Below, one piece after another: positions 1,367-19,296 of a stretch of DNA of 41,510 bases. The DNA comes from Enterobacteria phage IME_EC2. Position 1 is the stretch's first letter, and every line of letters starts with the position of its first letter. The translations under genes were made by a program, and so were the position numbers. The stretch lies in the sequence record NC_047742.1. One strand, 5' to 3'. Below the pieces are notes generated by a model that searched no databases, was not told where the DNA came from, and was given only the letters and a program-made list of their open reading frames with translations.

Positions 1367-1388
1367 CAATAAGTTAACAATCAATCAT

Positions 1389-1416
1389 AAAAGGGCCTTT
1401 GCGGCCCTTTCTTTTT
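1389..1416 (+). terminator. intrinsic terminator (AAGGGCC-TTTGC-GGCCCTT + T-run)
   Basis: GC stem followed by CTTTTTTC, directly after stop of ORF 1055..1366. Confidence 0.7.
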
Positions 1417-1464
1417 TCATTTACCCTTTTAGCGTTCACTCACTTGTTAAAAGGGATCCCTCCA

Positions 1465-1818
1465 ATGTCTGAGCATACGACGCTATGGCAATTGTTCCAG
1501 CTATACCGCGTTGAGTTGGGTTATTCATTCATCGCGGCATCGGTGGCGGTGTTCCGTCACTGGCAATTGCGCCACCCGTTCCGCGATATCGTCAGCGGCG
1601 GGGCGATCTGCGCTGCCGTCGCGTTCGGGATGAATAATATTTTATCATTCTTCGGGGTCGATCATGGTACGTGGGGTTATCTCGCTTCCGTGTTCCTGGG
1701 CTATGTTGGCGTAGAGACTGCGCTCGACTGGGCCAGCGAAAAGATCCCATTTCTTAAAAAGATCCGCGCTACTCCGGCGCACACTAACCACGAGGATCAG
1801 ACCGATGGCAAAATTTGA
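1465..1818 (+). CDS. holin, lambda S-like (class I, 3 TM segments)
   Basis: Three hydrophobic segments plus charged C-terminal tail; C-terminal region resembles lambda S; immediately upstream of endolysin with overlapping ends. Confidence 0.75.
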   Translation: MSEHTTLWQLFQLYRVELGYSFIAASVAVFRHWQLRHPFRDIVSGGAICAAVAFGMNNILSFFGVDHGTWGYLASVFLGYVGVETALDWASEKIPFLKKIRATPAHTNHEDQTDGKI

Positions 1819-2284
1819 AGTCACGCCACAGCGCAAGGCGTTTCTGGACGCGATCGCGGTAGGAGAGGGAACAGACAACGGTCGCCAGCAGACCAAAAAT
1901 CACGGCTACGACGTGATCGTGGGCGGCTCGCTGTTCTCCGACTATTCGAAGCATCCGGGGCGGCTGGTGAAGCTGCCGAAGCTCGGCATTAACTCCACGG
2001 CGGCGGGCCGCTATCAGGTGCTTAAGAAGTATGCGGAGCATTACATCGACCAGCTAAACCTCCCCGACTTCTCCCCAGCGTCACAGGACCAGATCGCCCT
2101 CCAGCAGATCAGCGAGCGTAAAGCGCTGGCGGATATTGACGCGGGCCGGATCCGCGAAGCCGTGGCAAAGGTCAATAACATCTGGGCCTCCCTGCCGGGT
2201 TCGAAGTATGGACAACGGACGGAGACGATCGACGACTTCCTGAAATATTTCCGCGCTGCTGGCGGTAAGGTAGCCGGAGAATGA
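1805..2284 (+). CDS. endolysin, lambda R-like lytic transglycosylase
   Basis: Aligns by eye along its length with lambda R (QRKAFLD, EGTDNGRQ, NHGYDVIVGG, DYSKHP, AGRYQ, NIWASLPG, YGQ). Confidence 0.9.
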   Translation: MAKFEVTPQRKAFLDAIAVGEGTDNGRQQTKNHGYDVIVGGSLFSDYSKHPGRLVKLPKLGINSTAAGRYQVLKKYAEHYIDQLNLPDFSPASQDQIALQQISERKALADIDAGRIREAVAKVNNIWASLPGSKYGQRTETIDDFLKYFRAAGGKVAGE

Positions 2285-2802
2285 TCGCCGCCCTCCGGTT
2301 GTTCCTCTCGACTCACTGGCGATCGCTGCTGCTCGTCGTTGTCGTGCTGCTGGCGCTGGGGGGATCTTTCTGGGCTGGCTCGGCCTGGACGGACCGGGGC
2401 TGGACCGCTCGCGACAATGCCAGGATCGCGAAGGAATCCACCCAGGAAGCGAACGCACAAGCCGCCGCCCGTATCATTGAACAAGGCCGGGCCATTGCCC
2501 GCGAGGAGTCCGTAAAATATGCGAACGAACAAGCCGCAAAAGCTCGCGCCGCTGCTGCTACTGCTGGCGCTTCCCTTGATCGGTTGCTCGAACGAGCCGC
2601 AAAGGAAGCCGCACGACGCGACGCCGCTGATCAGACCGCTGCCCTCGGAAGGGCGTCAGGGGAAAAGACCGCCAGAATGTACGCCGACCTGTTACGACGG
2701 ACTGGCGAAGTCGCTGGACGGTATGCTGATATAGCGGAGAAGGCGATCACCGCCGGGGAGGTATGCGAAAGGAATTACGACGCCGTGGAGCGTCAGCAAT
2801 AA
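2281..2802 (+). CDS. Rz: i-spanin (Rz-like)
   Basis: N-terminal TM anchor then Ala/Arg/Glu-rich coiled-coil-like periplasmic region; follows endolysin with ATGA overlap; contains embedded +1-frame lipoprotein ORF. Confidence 0.8.
   Translation: MIAALRLFLSTHWRSLLLVVVVLLALGGSFWAGSAWTDRGWTARDNARIAKESTQEANAQAAARIIEQGRAIAREESVKYANEQAAKARAAAATAGASLDRLLERAAKEAARRDAADQTAALGRASGEKTARMYADLLRRTGEVAGRYADIAEKAITAGEVCERNYDAVERQQ
2519..2734 (+). CDS. Rz1: o-spanin (Rz1-like lipoprotein) embedded in Rz
   Basis: Signal peptide with lipobox LIGC, proline-rich mature part, fully inside Rz in the +1 frame. Confidence 0.75.
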   Translation: MRTNKPQKLAPLLLLLALPLIGCSNEPQRKPHDATPLIRPLPSEGRQGKRPPECTPTCYDGLAKSLDGMLI

Positions 2803-2805
2803 ATC

Positions 2806-2830
2806 GGGGGCCAGTTGGCCCCCTTTTTTA
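2806..2830. terminator. intrinsic terminator between convergent genes (GGGGGCC-AGTT-GGCCCCC + T-run)
   Basis: Stem-loop with T-run on plus strand; sits at the convergence of Rz (+) and the Ig-like gene (-). Confidence 0.7.
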
Positions 2831-3616
2831 TGCCGGGTTTACCGTGACCGTACAAGCGATCGAGGTGACGGTGTTCGGCGGGACGGTGTTCGAACTGGTG
2901 GCAATACAGCGGTATTGACCAGCGTCCCCAGCCTGCGGCGTGGCAATGTTCAGCGTTGCGGCGGTTGCTCCAGTGATGCCACCTGCGCCTCCGTTGGCGA
3001 CGTTGCTCCAGGAGGTCCCGCCGTTCGTGGACTTCTGCCACTGGTAGGAGTACGGAGCGAGGCCCGTCGCCGCGTTGACCACGACCGCCAGCGAGTCCGC
3101 GACGTCTACCGTCCAGGTATCGGTCGCCGGGAGGTTGGTCGATAGGGCGATCGCCTGTTTCGTGCGCTCGCGCAAGGACTCCACCATCTGGCCCGTTGCG
3201 TCGGTTACTCTCACGAAGTAATCCCCGTTATTATTAGCCGCTGAGTAAGAGGCGATCGTGTAGCTGTCCTGATCGGCCCCCACTGGGTTGTCGGTGCTGG
3301 AGGCACGACGGAACCAGGCGAACGAGTAAGGAGCCACGCCGCCCTCCATCTCCACGGAGAACTCCTTCGAAGCGCCCCCGGTGACGTAGGTCGCGCCCGC
3401 GTCGGTTGCGTTGTTGCCCGGAAGGTTGACGGCGAACGTCAGCGCCGGGACAAGGTTCGGATCGTACTCCATGTAAAACATCCCAGTAGGATCCAGACCT
3501 TCGGGATCTGCGTCCAGCCAGATCACATCTTTCTGGGGAACCGTGACCGGATCAAGGATTCGCGTCACTTTCCACCCGAACATATCCGGGCGGTAGTACC
3601 GATGCCAAAAAGCCAT
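2828..3616 (-). CDS. Ig-like (Big/Hoc-type) domain protein
   Basis: Two Ig-like repeats (PYSFAWFRR, PYSYQWQKS, GQYRC); ORF trimmed to second ATG (MAFWH) with GAGGA upstream. Confidence 0.65.
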   Translation of the reverse strand: MAFWHRYYRPDMFGWKVTRILDPVTVPQKDVIWLDADPEGLDPTGMFYMEYDPNLVPALTFAVNLPGNNATDAGATYVTGGASKEFSVEMEGGVAPYSFAWFRRASSTDNPVGADQDSYTIASYSAANNNGDYFVRVTDATGQMVESLRERTKQAIALSTNLPATDTWTVDVADSLAVVVNAATGLAPYSYQWQKSTNGGTSWSNVANGGAGGITGATAATLNIATPQAGDAGQYRCIATSSNTVPPNTVTSIACTVTVNPA

Positions 3617-3688
3617 AATTTTGTCCTCGTGAAATTGTGCGGTATACTGCCCCGGCATTGTAGATCATCTCTGGCGTTAAAACGAAAG

Positions 3689-13967: not shown

Positions 13968-13994
13968 AAGGGGCCAATTAAGGCCCCTTTTTTT
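13968..13994. terminator. bidirectional intrinsic terminator (GGGGCC-AATTAA-GGCCCC + T7)
   Basis: Hairpin with T-run on plus side and U-rich on minus side, at convergence of the plus-strand operon and tailspike gene. Confidence 0.7.
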
Positions 13995-16233
13995 ATGCCG
14001 GAGTTCGGAAGGAGATCGGCTTCGTTGCCGCCAGTTGAACGCCCGCCACGGTTGCCGTCACGATAGCGTCCGCAATGTCGATCCTGATCTCTGCGGTCGG
14101 GTTGCTTGGGTTGGTGCTGTACGGTGCGCGAGTGATCACCGTGTTAAGCGGAGCGCCGCCAGCCCCGGCTCCGGGGATCGTGACGCGGGTCCCCTGCGTA
14201 AGCGGGGTCTTATAAAACCAGACCTGATCCGACTTGTTGCCAGCCATCGCGTAATTTTGCGCGAGGTAGGTCTGGCCCGCTGCCGTCGCTTTAATCTGCA
14301 ATTCTGCGACCGCCGGGAGGTATGCGCCGGACGTCTCGACGGCAAAGATCTTGCCATCGTTGCGGACCAGGAGATCGCCCTCCATGAACTCGCGCCCGGT
14401 CGGGAACGCGTTACCATCCCAGATCCCTACGCCGTCCATCTGGTCAGGAGTCGGGATCAGGTAAGTATGGTTAGAGGGCTGCATTTCAGCGCCTACGCCG
14501 CCGTTAGTCCCCGAACGAGGGTACGGACGGGCGAACACGTTCGAATTAACGCAATCAATCTGGCTGTATGCGCAACGGCTCCAGCCCTGATCCGGGTACG
14601 CGCCGAAGTTAACATTATTCATGCGTAACACGGTGCGACCGCCAGCGATATAACCATTCGAAGGCGTCCCGCCGCTGGAATCATCCCCGATCGCGTCGAA
14701 GATATCGCCGGAGATATCGTTTAAATCCAGTTCGGTAGCCACGCCGAAAACGGAGAATTTAGCCACGTTGATGTTACTGAATCGGCAACGGTTGGTTGCT
14801 CCGGCCTTTTCCGTACCCACGCCAGCGTAAAAGCGCCCGGTCTTGGAATAGACGTTCCTCACGGTCATGTCCTGGCAAGGACCACGAGCGCCCACTCCGG
14901 CGTTAGTCCCCCACTCCAGCATAACCACGCGGACGTCGGAGGCCAGGGTCCCGGAGGTCACGATCGGCTCCCCGCGAACGCCATCGATCGACACGCGGCG
15001 CGAGCCATAACAGAGGACCGTCGCCAGCGTCAGGCCGGAGCCGTTAGACACGTTCTGATCCGGGTCGCCGTTGATGTTCTCGATCACGGAGTCGCGGACC
15101 ATTTCGAAGTGAACAAGCTGGCGGACGCCGACGCCCGTCACGTTGCGGATCGTGATGTTCTTCGCAAAGTTCTCGTCAGGCGTGTCGATACCATACGGAG
15201 ATTGACCAGCGACGCCGATCCCGATCCCCCAGTTGGACGGGTTGATCGGAGCCTGTCCGGTGGAGTCGATGTTCTCCAGGTAGATATTTTCGATCACGCA
15301 ACCGTCGTCATAGTGGCGCTGCACCACGTTAAGCTCGATCCCGTCGCCGCCCATGTCGTAAAACGACAAGTTACGATACAGGCCACGCGTGACGAGTTCC
15401 CCGGTCCCCTGCTGCAAGATGCCGTAAAGGCCATTGCGGAACTCGCTCTCCGTGACTTCCACAGTCGCGTTTTTCGGTAGGGCTTGCATCATTACGCTTG
15501 CGACCTTGCTCGTGGTCGGCTTGCCGTCAAACAGGCAATCCCGGATCCTTACGTCGCCGCCCCATACGCGAATACGGGCGTTTTTAATGGTCGCGCCTTT
15601 CAGCGTGGAATTGTCCATGAAAAAGTCCGGCGTACCTTTCCACGTTCCCCCCATGATGAGGATATCCGTCGCGGTCACGTTGCCGTCCAGCGTTCCCTCC
15701 CAGCCAATGGCCCAGACCGCCAGCTTTTGGGCCTGAGCCGTGTCAAACATGGTCTGGATGGCTGCGGACACGCTGGTGAATGGCGCTTTCCCGACGAACT
15801 GAAAAGGAGTGATCCAGCCCTGAATCGACTCTTTCAAAACGCCGTAATTCGTCCCCACGTACTCCCAGCCCGTCGGCGAGGTGAGAAGGTTCCACATCTG
15901 GACCGGATCATATTTGAACAGGTTCCCGAAATAGAATTGCTGGACGTCGTTCGCGTCCATCACCTTCATGGATGATTCGATCTTGGTGATCAGTTTGACT
16001 ACTTGACCGTTCCAGACCGGATAGCCGGAGACGTTGGTCCGTACTGGCTGCGGGATTGGCGTCAGCGTTCCGTCCTCGTCCTCGACAAAGACCTGGGTCT
16101 GGTTCGCTGGGTTCAGCGGGTCGGTATCTTTCACGCCTACGTAGATCTTCCCGTTGACCAGCGCCGCGAAGCGGTCCAGACGTAGGAAAGGCGTCGAAGG
16201 CATACCAATATCAGCGTATACGTCGCGGGCCAT
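13993..16233 (-). CDS. tailspike protein (P22-type N-terminal head-binding domain, distinct beta-helix receptor-binding domain)
   Basis: N-terminus ALVNGKIYVGVKDTDPLNPANQTQVFVEDEDG aligns with P22 gp9 [32 protein letters not shown]; remainder unlike P22; trimmed to ATG (MARDV) with GGAGAA SD. Confidence 0.85.
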   Translation of the reverse strand: MARDVYADIGMPSTPFLRLDRFAALVNGKIYVGVKDTDPLNPANQTQVFVEDEDGTLTPIPQPVRTNVSGYPVWNGQVVKLITKIESSMKVMDANDVQQFYFGNLFKYDPVQMWNLLTSPTGWEYVGTNYGVLKESIQGWITPFQFVGKAPFTSVSAAIQTMFDTAQAQKLAVWAIGWEGTLDGNVTATDILIMGGTWKGTPDFFMDNSTLKGATIKNARIRVWGGDVRIRDCLFDGKPTTSKVASVMMQALPKNATVEVTESEFRNGLYGILQQGTGELVTRGLYRNLSFYDMGGDGIELNVVQRHYDDGCVIENIYLENIDSTGQAPINPSNWGIGIGVAGQSPYGIDTPDENFAKNITIRNVTGVGVRQLVHFEMVRDSVIENINGDPDQNVSNGSGLTLATVLCYGSRRVSIDGVRGEPIVTSGTLASDVRVVMLEWGTNAGVGARGPCQDMTVRNVYSKTGRFYAGVGTEKAGATNRCRFSNINVAKFSVFGVATELDLNDISGDIFDAIGDDSSGGTPSNGYIAGGRTVLRMNNVNFGAYPDQGWSRCAYSQIDCVNSNVFARPYPRSGTNGGVGAEMQPSNHTYLIPTPDQMDGVGIWDGNAFPTGREFMEGDLLVRNDGKIFAVETSGAYLPAVAELQIKATAAGQTYLAQNYAMAGNKSDQVWFYKTPLTQGTRVTIPGAGAGGAPLNTVITRAPYSTNPSNPTAEIRIDIADAIVTATVAGVQLAATKPISFRTPA

Positions 16234-16272
16234 TGTGTTCTCCATGAGAAAGGGGGCTTATCGCCCCCGTTG

Positions 16273-19200
16273 TTATTGTTGCTGCTGGTCGCTTGCTGCC
16301 GCTTGCCCGCCAGTACCGGAAAGGAATCCGACGATCCCGGCGCGGTTAATGGCTGCTTTCTCCTCCGGGGTCATGGCCTCGATCAAGGCTTTCCACTCCG
16401 GCGAGTTTGCCGCCGCTTCCTCGGCCTCTCGGACGAACGTCCGGCCCGCTGGGGTCAGCTTCCCGGAACTCTGCGCGGCTGCGGCTTGTAACAGTTTATT
16501 GAAGTTTTCACCAGAAAGCACGTTGTCCGCAAGAACAGATCGCGGAACACGAGTCGCTCGCCCTGCTGCCTGAGCCGCTGCGAGCGCTGCATTACCCGCC
16601 GGGCCTAACGTGTAGAGCGCTGCGGCATGTTTACCCAGCCAGCCCGCCGCGCCGTATAGCTTCGACATAACGCCACCAGCGCCCGGATCGTCGAATCGCT
16701 TCACGAAGTCGGAGATCGATCCCGTCGTCGTGGTAAAGCGTTTCGCCCGGTCGATCCCGTTCGCCACGCGGTAGATCTGCATGAGGCGCTGGCGCTGCTG
16801 GCGCGGTAGGTGCTGCATGACGTTTCCTAACGTCCCGTTAGCCTGGGCGGTCTTGTACCAGTCCACGAAGCCGGGGATCGCGAAGGTATCGCGGGCGCTA
16901 CGTGCGCCCAGGGTACGCTCCAGCGCGTTAGCCACTACGTCGGACTTGAGGCTGTCCGGGGTTGCGGCCATCAGCTTGTCCCAGTCCCTCGCGCTGCCGC
17001 CCTTCTTGCCCAGGTTCAGGATCGCACTCTGCACTTTCCCGGTGATCGAGTTGTCGAGGTTTTTCCCCAGGACTTCGAGGGCCTGAGTCTCCAGGTCCTT
17101 ACGGCGTTTAACAAGCTGTTTCCCCACATTCCAGTCGTCCGCCGCGCCATACTGGGCCGCGACTCGCTCCTGGTCGTCAGTCAGGCGGGCATAAAGCTGT
17201 TTAAGCTGCGCCGGGACTTCATCCTTAAACGGGCCGTTTTTCTTGTTCAGCGCCTCGCCGACCTGCTTCCGAAGGGTGTCCAGTCGGGCGTAAGTCGGGA
17301 TCGTCGAAACACTCTGATCAGGGAGTCCCGTCACTGGGTCCACCTTCCCAGGCTTCGGAGCCATCCAGTCGAGCGCCTTTTTCTCTGCTGCGGAAAGGTA
17401 CTCGTCCCCGCCTAACTCGTCAGCCTTCGCCGTCAGATAATCCACGGTGCTGTCCGGCCTTACTTCGGCGTTGCGGGGGATCTTGGCGCTCACGGCGTTA
17501 TAAGCCTTTTCCGCCTCGTCGCCCAGGCCGTCGATAATGGCGCGGGTACGGGCGGCAAACGCCTGATCGATGGTCTGCGCGTTCATGCTGGTCATGCTGT
17601 CGATCAGCTCGTCGGCCTTCTCACCTAAGCGAGAGATCCCGTTAATCTGCTGAGTTTCCAGGTTGGAACTTTTCCGGCTTACAAGCTGCTGGAGCGTGGT
17701 CCTAAACTGCGTATCACGCGCATAAGCCGCCGGGGTCAGTTGATCCTCCATCCCCAGATCGCGGGCGGTTTTCATCAGCTTTTTGTCCACGTCCGCCATG
17801 TTCGCGAGGTCGATCATCTCGTCAGAAGCGCGGAGGGTTTCACCGTTCGCGCCCTGTACGGTCTGATCTGGCGTCAGTCGGAACTTGCTCGCATCACGAG
17901 CCACAGCGTCGGAGATTCCCGCCTCGGTCGCCTGGGTGGATCGGGTTGCGTCCGCTGCTGCGTCTGCTGCGCCACCTGCGGCCCCCTCGCCGCCCCTGAG
18001 CGCATTCCACAGCCTACCAGCGCCACCGATAACAGCGCGGCCCACAGCCTCGCCAGCGGGCGCTAGTGCGATATTCGTCAGCGTCTCCTCCGGGTCCCCA
18101 CGACCAGCGGCGATCGCGCCCGGCACAGCACGAGCCGCCGGAGCCGCGATCCAGTTCTGGGTCATATCGGCGAGACGGGTCGCGAAGCTGGTCGCGTCCG
18201 GCGCTTCACGAACCAGTCCGAGGAGTTCGGTCGCCGCCTGAGCCTTACGCGGGCCAGGTAGCGGCGCGAGCATATCGCCGATCAGGGTCCCGATCTGCGC
18301 GTATTTGTCAGTAGGGGCCAGACCAGGGATCCCCCCAGGCGTGATGGTTGGCGCTTGGGTGCTTTCATCCACCAGCCCGACGCCCTTCCCGGCATCGGTC
18401 ACGGCTTGGGAGATCATGTTCGCCAGGGAGATCGGCGTGTTCAGCAGGTCGATCCCCGTCTGAGCCACGCCGCGAGCGCCCTGATCCAGCGAGTGGAGGA
18501 CGGTCTGGCCTAACTTTTCCCAGTTTCGGGCGGCTTCTTCGTTTGGATCGGTTTGTCCGGGCTGATTAGCTCCGCCCTGCTCTCCGTTACCGTTCGGCGC
18601 TGCCGCCCCTTGTGCGCCATCAGATCCCGCTTGATTAAGTGCATTGCCAGCGGAGACGGCTGGGACTTGTTGATCGGCTCCGGTTGCTCCGGCTCCGTCT
18701 GCGGCTGCTGGTGCCTGGTAGTCTCCGAACTGGTCGAAAACATTACCGCCAGCGCTCGGAGATCGTGCGCTGGTTGCGTATTGAGTAGGTTCGCCGCTGC
18801 CATCGCTGCCAGCGCCTCGCCCAGTCCATTGATTAAACCGATCATCCACATATTGACGCCCCTCCGGGCCTGGGGTTGCCTGGCCCGCCAGTTGTTTGTC
18901 TACGTTGCCGGGGCCGTCGTGGTAAGCCTGGAGAGCCGTCCCCCAATCTCCGTAGCGCTGATACATGCGGGAAAGATACTGCGCCCCCGCGTCCGCTTGC
19001 ATTGCCGGATCCTGCGCCAGTTGCGCCGGGTCGTAGCCCATATCGCGGGCCGTTCCCGGCATCACCTGAGTAAGCCCCATTGCGCCCTTGCTGGAGGTCG
19101 CAGTGGGATCGCCGCTGGATTCTTTACCCATTAACTGAGTCATGAGGCCAGCAGGGATCCCCCACTTGGCCCCGGCGCTCTCCACCAGATCAGCATAACC

Positions 19201-19296
19201 TCCGCCAGTGGATCCCGCTTGCTGCGGGATCTGATTTGGGAGCGCTTCCGCACTTTCCGGCATATTCTGATCAAACTGGTCGAAGATGTTCGCCAT
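16273..19296 (-). CDS. internal virion/ejection protein (gp16 position) with N-terminal lytic transglycosylase (SLT) domain
   Basis: SLT motifs GKESSGDP...KGAMGLTQVMP...ALQAYHDGPGNV; 1007 aa, Ala/Gly-rich; last gene before tailspike. Confidence 0.7.
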   Translation of the reverse strand: MANIFDQFDQNMPESAEALPNQIPQQAGSTGGGYADLVESAGAKWGIPAGLMTQLMGKESSGDPTATSSKGAMGLTQVMPGTARDMGYDPAQLAQDPAMQADAGAQYLSRMYQRYGDWGTALQAYHDGPGNVDKQLAGQATPGPEGRQYVDDRFNQWTGRGAGSDGSGEPTQYATSARSPSAGGNVFDQFGDYQAPAAADGAGATGADQQVPAVSAGNALNQAGSDGAQGAAAPNGNGEQGGANQPGQTDPNEEAARNWEKLGQTVLHSLDQGARGVAQTGIDLLNTPISLANMISQAVTDAGKGVGLVDESTQAPTITPGGIPGLAPTDKYAQIGTLIGDMLAPLPGPRKAQAATELLGLVREAPDATSFATRLADMTQNWIAAPAARAVPGAIAAGRGDPEETLTNIALAPAGEAVGRAVIGGAGRLWNALRGGEGAAGGAADAAADATRSTQATEAGISDAVARDASKFRLTPDQTVQGANGETLRASDEMIDLANMADVDKKLMKTARDLGMEDQLTPAAYARDTQFRTTLQQLVSRKSSNLETQQINGISRLGEKADELIDSMTSMNAQTIDQAFAARTRAIIDGLGDEAEKAYNAVSAKIPRNAEVRPDSTVDYLTAKADELGGDEYLSAAEKKALDWMAPKPGKVDPVTGLPDQSVSTIPTYARLDTLRKQVGEALNKKNGPFKDEVPAQLKQLYARLTDDQERVAAQYGAADDWNVGKQLVKRRKDLETQALEVLGKNLDNSITGKVQSAILNLGKKGGSARDWDKLMAATPDSLKSDVVANALERTLGARSARDTFAIPGFVDWYKTAQANGTLGNVMQHLPRQQRQRLMQIYRVANGIDRAKRFTTTTGSISDFVKRFDDPGAGGVMSKLYGAAGWLGKHAAALYTLGPAGNAALAAAQAAGRATRVPRSVLADNVLSGENFNKLLQAAAAQSSGKLTPAGRTFVREAEEAAANSPEWKALIEAMTPEEKAAINRAGIVGFLSGTGGQAAASDQQQQ

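Follow-up and report, generated by a model that had tools for sequence, protein, structure and literature searches.

Embedded two-component spanins, in which the gene of the lipoprotein subunit (o-spanin) lies inside that of the membrane-anchored subunit (i-spanin), have been catalogued by Kongari et al. (2018; PMC6139136). In that catalogue, gene 55 of phage N15 is listed as an embedded i-spanin gene and the open reading frame (ORF) at NC_001901 43677..43931 as its o-spanin gene, with the remark 'not annotated/putative' (Table S1). The N15 pair forms a singleton embedded family, apart from that of lambda Rz/Rz1. Kongari et al. (2018; PMC6139136) have already discussed, for the lambda family, the constraint that acts on the two frames of embedded spanins, and the penta-proline stretch of lambda Rz1 is known to be functionally critical (PMC6139136). 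The DNA considered here, referred to as the window, is the whole stretch of 41,510 nucleotides from Enterobacteria phage IME_EC2 (NC_047742.1), which appears to be the complete genome of this phage (Murrayvirus EC2, 41,510 bp). An ORF at 2519..2734 of the window, nested in the +1 frame of a gene at 2281..2802, is very probably the o-spanin gene of a two-component spanin belonging to the DUF2514/N15 gp55-type family, acting by the mechanism proposed below.

The embedded lipoprotein gene and its host gene

The features of the spanin pair are the following.

2281..2802, plus strand: i-spanin gene, 173 amino acids, DUF2514/N15 gp55 type (PF10721, phrog_312)
2320..2382, plus strand: predicted N-terminal transmembrane anchor of the i-spanin, about residues 14-34 (RSLLLVVVVLLALGGSFWAGS), from hydropathy
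2503..2508, plus strand: Shine-Dalgarno site GAGGAG, 10 nucleotides 5' of the o-spanin ATG, inside i-spanin codons Arg-Glu-Glu
2519..2734, plus strand: o-spanin gene, ATG start, +1 frame of the i-spanin gene, 71-amino-acid precursor, match to phrog_11621
2519..2584, plus strand: predicted o-spanin signal peptide, residues 1-22, from a heuristic scan
2576..2587, plus strand: lipobox L-I-G-C, codons 20-23 (TTG ATC GGT TGC), Cys23 being the predicted lipidated residue
2624..2728, plus strand: conserved core of the mature o-spanin, 35 residues, P36-L70 (PLIRPLPSEGRQGKRPPECTPTCYDGLAKSLDGML), with Cys54 and Cys58

The embedded ORF lies wholly within the 173-codon ORF and begins 238 nucleotides into it, an offset of 1 modulo 3 that places it in the +1 frame; lambda Rz1 lies in Rz at an offset of 220 nucleotides, likewise 1 modulo 3. 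Its product is MRTNKPQKLAPLLLLLALPLIGCSNEPQRKPHDATPLIRPLPSEGRQGKRPPECTPTCYDGLAKSLDGMLI. An in-frame TAA at 2513-2515, two codons 5' of the ATG, makes the ATG at 2519 the earliest possible start, and the start is thus unambiguous. The GAGGAG site is identical in relatives of the genera Murrayvirus and Sortsnevirus, N15 has GAGG at the equivalent place, and the N15 entry of the catalogue carries the same Shine-Dalgarno site (Kongari et al., 2018, Table S1; PMC6139136). Expressed as a fraction of the length of the i-spanin gene (L), the embedded gene runs from 0.46 L to 0.87 L. Embedded spanins mostly start at about 0.4-0.5 L and end at 0.9-1 L (Kongari et al., 2018; PMC6139136), so that the IME_EC2 gene ends slightly short of the modal range, as does that of lambda (0.48-0.87 L). 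Directly 5' of the o-spanin start, the same +1 frame holds a second open stretch (2339..2515, plus strand, 58 amino acids from a TTG start), for which neither a signal peptide nor a family match was found, and which most likely reflects no more than the composition of the i-spanin gene, rich in GC and alanine codons (GC, guanine plus cytosine).

The first residues of the embedded product have the layout of a lipoprotein signal. The n-region is basic (R2, K5, K8), residues 9-19 are uncharged and hydrophobic, and L20-I21-G22 form both the end of the signal peptide and the first three positions of the lipobox. The LIGC sequence agrees with the consensus [LVI][ASTVI][GAS]C (Kongari et al., 2018; PMC6139136), the +2 position is occupied by Ser24 and not by Asp, and the lipobox Cys is invariant across all aligned members of the family. 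The product passes the G+LPPv2 lipoprotein pattern. Predicted processing leaves a mature protein of 49 residues with eight Pro (16%) and two further Cys (C54 and C58); its longest proline run is the PP at residues 51-52, and no penta-proline is present. Mature lambda Rz1 is 40 amino acids long (Kongari et al., 2018; PMC6139136). By the present computation, which gave a length of 41 amino acids, it holds 10 Pro, or about 25%.

Length by itself turned out to carry no weight as evidence for a gene. Among 20,000 synonymous recodings of the i-spanin gene, drawn with the phage's own codon usage, 12,516 (63%) contained a +1-frame ORF of at least 71 amino acids, and the argument from ORF length was dropped. 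This result bears on the possibility that the embedded ORF has no function and arose as a by-product of GC- and Ala-rich coding sequence. Genes rich in GCN codons rarely have stops in the +1 frame, and long spurious ORFs are to be expected in them; the GC content of the window is 59%, the i-spanin gene is alanine-rich, and the same frame is also open at 2339..2515. The exact 71-residue protein is moreover absent from a collection of 15 billion proteins, which means that it was never called as a gene. Against a by-product stands the signal itself: a lipoprotein-type signal arose in just 4 of the 20,000 recodings, and when every ATG, GTG and TTG start in the six frames of the 41.5-kb window was passed through the heuristic lipoprotein scan, the ORF at 2519..2734 was the sole match. 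It is also matched by a spanin family, phrog_11621 'Rz-like spanin' (expectation value, E=4.5e-12).

The host gene has the properties of an i-spanin gene. Its product matches Pfam PF10721 (DUF2514) with E=6e-29 and 101.6 bits against a gathering cut-off of 26, over profile positions 1-160 of 161, and phrog_312 'Rz-like spanin' with E=8e-43. It is 100% identical to AGZ17798.1/YP_009784206.1 of IME_EC2, the latter named 'Rz-like spanin'; the name in GenBank is 'tail assembly-like protein'. Mean Kyte-Doolittle values in 19-residue windows reach 2.0-2.2 at residues 14-34, and the presence of R6 and R14 on the N-terminal side of this anchor suggests an N-in, C-out orientation. A single-sequence AlphaFold2 (AF2) model of the i-spanin is all-helical over residues 2-172, with a predicted local distance difference test score (pLDDT) of 86. 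NCBIfam gave nothing useful for either spanin; the i-spanin had a sub-threshold match to GspM (E=0.002; 17.8 bits, the cut-off being 60), which was treated as noise from the coiled coil and anchor. The i-spanin has one periplasmic Cys (Cys162) and the o-spanin two (Cys54 and Cys58), all three conserved across the family.

The names given to orthologues would allow another role for this locus, in which 2281..2802 encodes a tail-assembly protein or a peptidoglycan endopeptidase and the embedded lipoprotein does something unrelated, such as superinfection exclusion. In GenBank, the orthologues are called 'tail assembly-like protein' (ST231 and IME_EC2), 'putative murein endopeptidase' (KMB41) and 'endopeptidase Rz' (phiNP and Fraca). 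'Endopeptidase' is, however, a historical name for lambda Rz, and the protein matched DUF2514 and the PHROG 'Rz-like spanin' family, with no match to a tail or peptidase family. It consists of a single N-terminal anchor and one long helix, with no globular domain, and its gene invariably comes after holin and endolysin genes, whether the virion module of the phage is P22-like, N15-like or lambdoid. A tail or peptidase function is therefore scarcely credible.

The reading of this locus as an o-spanin gene inside an i-spanin gene had been put forward from the sequence by itself, and it held up well: the coordinates and the +1 frame given for the embedded ORF are exact, a valid LIGC lipobox is present, and signal, phrog_11621 match, conservation in relatives and dual-coding pattern all agree with an o-spanin lipoprotein. 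The mature region, which had been described as proline-rich, is moderately so and lacks the penta-proline run of lambda.

Conservation of the two reading frames

The embedded ORF is retained in all 15 related phage loci examined, always in the +1 frame and with a start between 0.36 L and 0.46 L. Nine close relatives (sortsyn, Lumpael, Sortsne, IME279, ST231, sortregn, KMB41, sortkaff and Kc237) have an ungapped i-spanin gene of 522 nucleotides, 73-99% identical in nucleotide sequence to that of the window, and within it an embedded ORF of 71 amino acids with LIGC, the product being 62-96% identical to that of IME_EC2. Over the lysis cassette, nucleotide identity to the Murrayvirus/Sortsnevirus orthologues is 76-97%; Skarpretter (Skarprettervirus) is 69% identical over part of it. 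More distant DUF2514 genes, those of Skarpretter, N15, C130_2, phiNP, 2H10, Tritos and Fraca, each contain a +1 lipoprotein ORF starting at 0.36-0.43 L. The lipobox Cys and the PLPS and C-x-P-x-C motifs are kept in close and distant relatives.

In the ten close sequences (the window and its nine relatives), variability at the third codon position of the i-spanin gene falls from 55% of sites outside the overlap to 38% inside it, a difference that is modest (Fisher p=0.03) and comes from sequences that are related and not independent. Variability at the first position of the i-spanin codons, which is the wobble position of the embedded frame, rises from 34% outside to 45% inside the overlap.

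A clearer pattern was obtained from a core of 35 codons that is ungapped in 14 sequences. In the embedded frame 13 of 35 columns are invariant, as compared with 5 of 34 in the i-spanin frame, and the motif P-x3-PLPS-x3-Q-x6-C-x-P-x-C-x3-L-x3-L-x2-ML is present in all 14 aligned members, including the window and N15. When the two clades are compared over the core, 53% of amino acids are identical if the DNA is read in the embedded frame and 29% if it is read in the i-spanin frame. Sorted by codon position of the embedded frame, the variable sites number 20, 19 and 29 of 35. As judged from these alignments, the substitution pattern in the shared core DNA follows the embedded frame, and it is this frame that dominates the constraint. 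The contrast of 13 with 5 invariant residues and of 53% with 29% identity, together with the periodicity in the embedded frame, is taken to exclude a by-product ORF; ORF, start, lipobox Cys and the 13-residue invariant motif all persist where identity in the i-spanin frame has dropped to 29%, and variability by codon position tracks the embedded frame. An accidental ORF is thus strongly disfavoured and very improbable as the origin of 2519..2734.

The two clades differ at the C-terminus of the o-spanin. In the Murrayvirus/Sortsnevirus clade the proteins end in ...LDGMLI (71 amino acids; 2519..2734 in the window), whereas those of N15 (1378..1632 of locus L012), Skarpretter (2493..2747 of locus L010), C130_2 and phiNP have 84 amino acids, with 13 extra C-terminal residues (...NDLTKAxxxx). 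The Skarpretter protein is thus of the 84-residue, N15-like form, and its lipobox is LTAC. For 2H10, Tritos and Fraca the longest ORF encodes 89 amino acids, an upstream in-frame Met adding five N-terminal residues. The difference of 13 residues between the clades implies that the o-spanin's extreme C-terminus is dispensable or clade-specific, which is in line with the finding of Kongari et al. on the extreme C-terminus of lambda Rz1 (PMC6139136).

Family placement and proposed function

On profile and pairwise matches, the IME_EC2 pair belongs to the DUF2514/phrog_312 plus phrog_11621 family, and its closest catalogued relative is the embedded spanin of N15. The i-spanin is 41% identical to the product of N15 gene 55 (E=3e-25), and the o-spanin is 45% identical over the core to the embedded o-spanin of N15 (E=3e-9). 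Neither protein was recognized by the lambda families. The o-spanin had no Pfam match at E<=1, and hence none to PF06085, and no match to phrog_3198; the i-spanin matched PF10721 and phrog_312 only, with no match to PF03245 or phrog_13. The lambda proteins served as controls, Rz scoring E=3e-54 on PF03245 and E=1e-79 on phrog_13, and Rz1 scoring E=3e-20 on PF06085 and E=1.5e-29 on phrog_3198. In pairwise BLASTP with lambda Rz and Rz1, only the anchor or signal ends and a few chance residues were aligned, at E values of 0.02-0.04 (single comparison); for the i-spanin and Rz, the alignment covered the transmembrane segment and two short chance stretches, with a best E of 0.04. Direct homology to lambda Rz/Rz1 was therefore not detected by BLASTP, Pfam or PHROGs.

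The sequence-only reading had called the system a lambda-type embedded spanin and had proposed a comparison with lambda Rz1. The architecture is that of lambda, but neither protein shows detectable homology to Rz or Rz1, and the comparison with Rz1 by BLASTP, PF06085 and phrog_3198 came out negative. The pair could still be a true orthologue of Rz/Rz1 that has diverged past easy recognition. With lambda it shares gene order, ATGA junction, frame offset and the relative position of the embedded gene, the holin and endolysin are clear homologues of lambda S and R, and phrog_456 gave weak matches to both lambda Rz1 (E=0.002) and the o-spanin of the window (E=0.08). The window proteins nevertheless find no match in PF03245, PF06085, phrog_13 or phrog_3198, on which the lambda proteins score E=1e-20 to 1e-80, the BLASTP alignments are confined to anchor and signal ends, the penta-proline is missing, and N15 has been placed in a family of its own, apart from that of lambda (Kongari et al., 2018; PMC6139136). 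Orthology with Rz/Rz1 is thus considered unlikely.

Assignment of the locus to an embedded two-component spanin brings together the nesting of the ORFs, a lipobox signal with no Asp at +2, an i-spanin with a transmembrane segment and a helix, the location in the lysis cassette, and periplasmic Cys in both proteins. At least one periplasmic Cys is found in 507 of 528 two-component spanins (Kongari et al., 2018; PMC6139136). Some observations weigh on the other side, in addition to the relatedness of the ten sequences mentioned above. The lipoprotein signal was judged by pattern and hydropathy proxies in place of LipoP/SignalP, and the strict PROSITE pattern PS00013 fails on the o-spanin of the window, the sole cause being Pro at position -4. 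This failure was not considered disqualifying because G+LPPv2 passes and because close relatives carry Leu at -4, and with it pass both patterns; the outcome of PS00013 and G+LPPv2 was disregarded for N15, Fraca, Skarpretter, C130_2 and sortsyn, in which wrong internal starts were matched. Conservation of GAGGAG can be assigned to neither frame alone, because the i-spanin residues 'REE' are also conserved as protein. The AF2 model of the i-spanin is one continuous helix with no hinge, not two coiled-coil segments, and it cannot therefore confirm a lambda-like hairpin. The model of the o-spanin is of low confidence (mean pLDDT 56) and shows nothing beyond the helix of the signal peptide and a short helix near the C-terminus (residues 58-67). 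Both models are consistent with a spanin, although not decisive. In the literature covered, two papers that mention DUF2514 aside, no experimental test of any DUF2514 or phrog_11621 member was met.

The proposed mechanism follows what is known of lambda. Both spanins would be translated from one late lysis transcript, carrying the holin, endolysin and spanin genes and ending at the hairpin at 2806-2829, the o-spanin presumably from its own internal GAGGAG/ATG site, which is seen in the sequence. By the general rules for lipoproteins, the 71-residue precursor would be exported by Sec, acquire its lipid at Cys23 and be cleaved behind Gly22 by signal peptidase II; since the +2 residue is Ser and not Asp, the Lol system would deliver the mature protein to the outer membrane, in its inner leaflet. 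The i-spanin is predicted from hydropathy and AF2 to be anchored in the inner membrane by residues 14-34 or so, with its long helical domain reaching across the periplasm. By analogy with lambda, the C-terminal parts of the two proteins may bind each other, probably with Dsb-dependent disulfides involving Cys162 of the i-spanin and Cys54 and Cys58 of the o-spanin. Once the holin fires and the lambda R-like endolysin clears the peptidoglycan, the complexes would become free to move and change shape. They would thereupon bring lysis to completion by fusing or disrupting the inner and the outer membrane, a step modelled wholly on lambda Rz/Rz1.

The o-spanin gene is unannotated in the IME_EC2 record, as it is in every related record fetched except RefSeq Sortsne. 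In the latter (NC_048178), the embedded gene is annotated (2626..2841, 216 nucleotides, gp11, 'Rz-like spanin') and the enclosing i-spanin ORF of 522 nucleotides (2388..2909), which is intact, is not; the other fetched records show the reverse, with the i-spanin annotated and the o-spanin omitted. The i-spanin gene is often misnamed in relatives, as 'tail assembly-like protein', 'murein endopeptidase' or 'hypothetical'. The embedded layout is textbook material and the sequence family is already present in PHROGs and in the catalogue of Kongari et al., so that what is new is the IME_EC2 member itself. With the o-spanin annotated, the lysis cassette is complete in IME_EC2 and in its relatives, among which are phages under study for therapy. 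Of modest interest is also the existence of a non-lambda spanin family with the same embedded layout, in which the embedded frame appears to dominate the constraint on the overlap.

The lysis cassette, its genome setting and comparison with lambda and N15

The spanin pair is the last part of a cassette that includes the following features.

1465..1818, plus strand: holin gene, 117 amino acids, lambda S family, first gene of the cassette
1805..2284, plus strand: endolysin gene, 159 amino acids, lambda R type, overlapping the end of the holin gene by 14 nucleotides
2806..2829, no strand assigned: intrinsic terminator hairpin, GGGGGCC-AGTT-GGCCCCC followed by TTTTTT, seven GC pairs, 4 nucleotides after the i-spanin stop

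The holin matches PF05106 (Phage_holin_3_1) with E=5.2e-9, above the curated cut-off, and phrog_126 (holin/anti-holin) with E=3e-17; by BLASTP it is 28% identical to lambda S (E=2e-7). Holin orthologues are annotated with the corresponding ATG start. The N-terminus, MSEHTT, is without the Met-Lys-Met dual-start motif of lambda, and an in-frame TTG at 1399, which would lengthen the holin by 22 residues, is used in no annotation of a fetched relative. The endolysin is 60% identical to lambda R over 153 amino acids (E=9e-65) and matches phrog_90 endolysin with E=2e-54. Its stop codon overlaps the ATG of the i-spanin gene as ATGA, as at the R/Rz junction of lambda.

The hairpin at 2806..2829 ends the lysis cassette. 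It is also listed on the minus strand, where its tail is GATTTATTGC, with just five T in an eight-base window, and it is a weaker terminator candidate for the convergent gene. The latter (2828..3658, minus strand) lies on the far side of the 2806-2823 hairpin from the cassette and encodes a Hoc-like, Ig-domain head-decoration protein of 276 amino acids (phrog_2973, E=3e-72), which is named 'tail protein', 'major tail subunit' or 'capsid decoration' in relatives. At the other end, about 50 nucleotides 5' of the holin ATG, 1390..1418 forms another terminator-like hairpin, AAAGGGCC-TTTGC-GGCCCTTT followed by a T-run. It may mark the end of an upstream operon, or may be a site like tR' of lambda that is read through by late transcription; no sigma-70-like promoter was found between this hairpin and the holin gene.

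Among the records of the phage collection, the nearest is that of Escherichia phage sortsyn (Murrayvirus). Its cassette and that of the window (nucleotides 1380-2830) are 97.5% identical, and of the first 25 kb of the window, 70% aligned with sortsyn, at 96.6% identity. A PHROG scan of the large ORFs identified portal, scaffold, major head protein/coat, Hc3 head closure, tail-needle knob, DNA-transfer/ejection proteins and tailspike. Such components make up the P22 virion module. This supports a P22-like virion module in IME_EC2, as read from the kinds of PHROG families and general knowledge of P22. The adjacent genes at 13993..16245 and 16273..19296, both on the minus strand, encode the tailspike, whose N-terminal head-binding region is P22-like and whose body is of the colanic-acid-degrading kind (phrog_6117, E=2e-247), and a DNA-transfer (ejection) protein of 1007 amino acids with an N-terminal lytic transglycosylase domain. 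Phages of the genus Murrayvirus are podoviruses that were formerly misclassified as Siphoviridae (Olsen et al., 2020; PMC7552041), and a siphovirus reading was ruled out by this study together with the podovirus-type PHROG module. The earlier description of a lambda-like lysis cassette joined to P22-like morphogenesis is borne out on both counts, the former by the lambda S-family holin, the endolysin and the architecture, the latter by PHROG families of the kinds found in the P22 virion.

Compared with lambda, the resemblance of IME_EC2 lies in the arrangement. In both phages the o-spanin gene lies wholly inside the i-spanin gene, in the +1 frame, starting at 0.46 L in IME_EC2 and 0.48 L in lambda and ending at 0.87 L in each, the ATGA junction is present, and the order is S-R-Rz/Rz1, with homologous S and R. 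Both pairs consist of an N-anchored helical i-spanin and a short Pro-containing lipoprotein with no confidently predicted fold, and both have periplasmic Cys. The proteins themselves differ. The o-spanin of IME_EC2 has 16% Pro and no penta-proline, as against about 25% Pro in lambda; it has two periplasmic Cys (C-x3-C) where lambda has one, its i-spanin has one where lambda has two, and a short C-terminal amphipathic helix is predicted in the o-spanin, unlike in lambda.

With N15 the likeness extends to the proteins. Both systems have a DUF2514 i-spanin, the +1 frame, the GAGG site and the motif PLPSE...C-x-P-T-C...L...ML, and in each the i-spanin has a single periplasmic Cys and the o-spanin two. 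The IME_EC2 o-spanin is 71 residues long instead of 84, its C-terminus falling short of that of N15 by 13 residues, and the linker that follows the lipid-bearing Cys is also shorter, while its i-spanin has four residues fewer in the distal helix. N15 combines its spanin with a different holin and lysozyme and with a virion of the siphovirus type.

The literature already contains some discussion of convergence among spanins. A tentative proposal, to which slightly less than even chances are given, is that the DUF2514/N15-type pair is an independently evolved, convergent embedded spanin with a different contact chemistry. In such a system the o-spanin frame would be the more constrained one (53% against 29% core identity), the PLPS...C-x-P-x-C motif and the C-terminal helix would take the place of the penta-proline of lambda, and the last 13 residues would have been lost in the Murrayvirus/Sortsnevirus clade. 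If true, an independent origin of the embedded layout with a different contact motif would be of mild interest.

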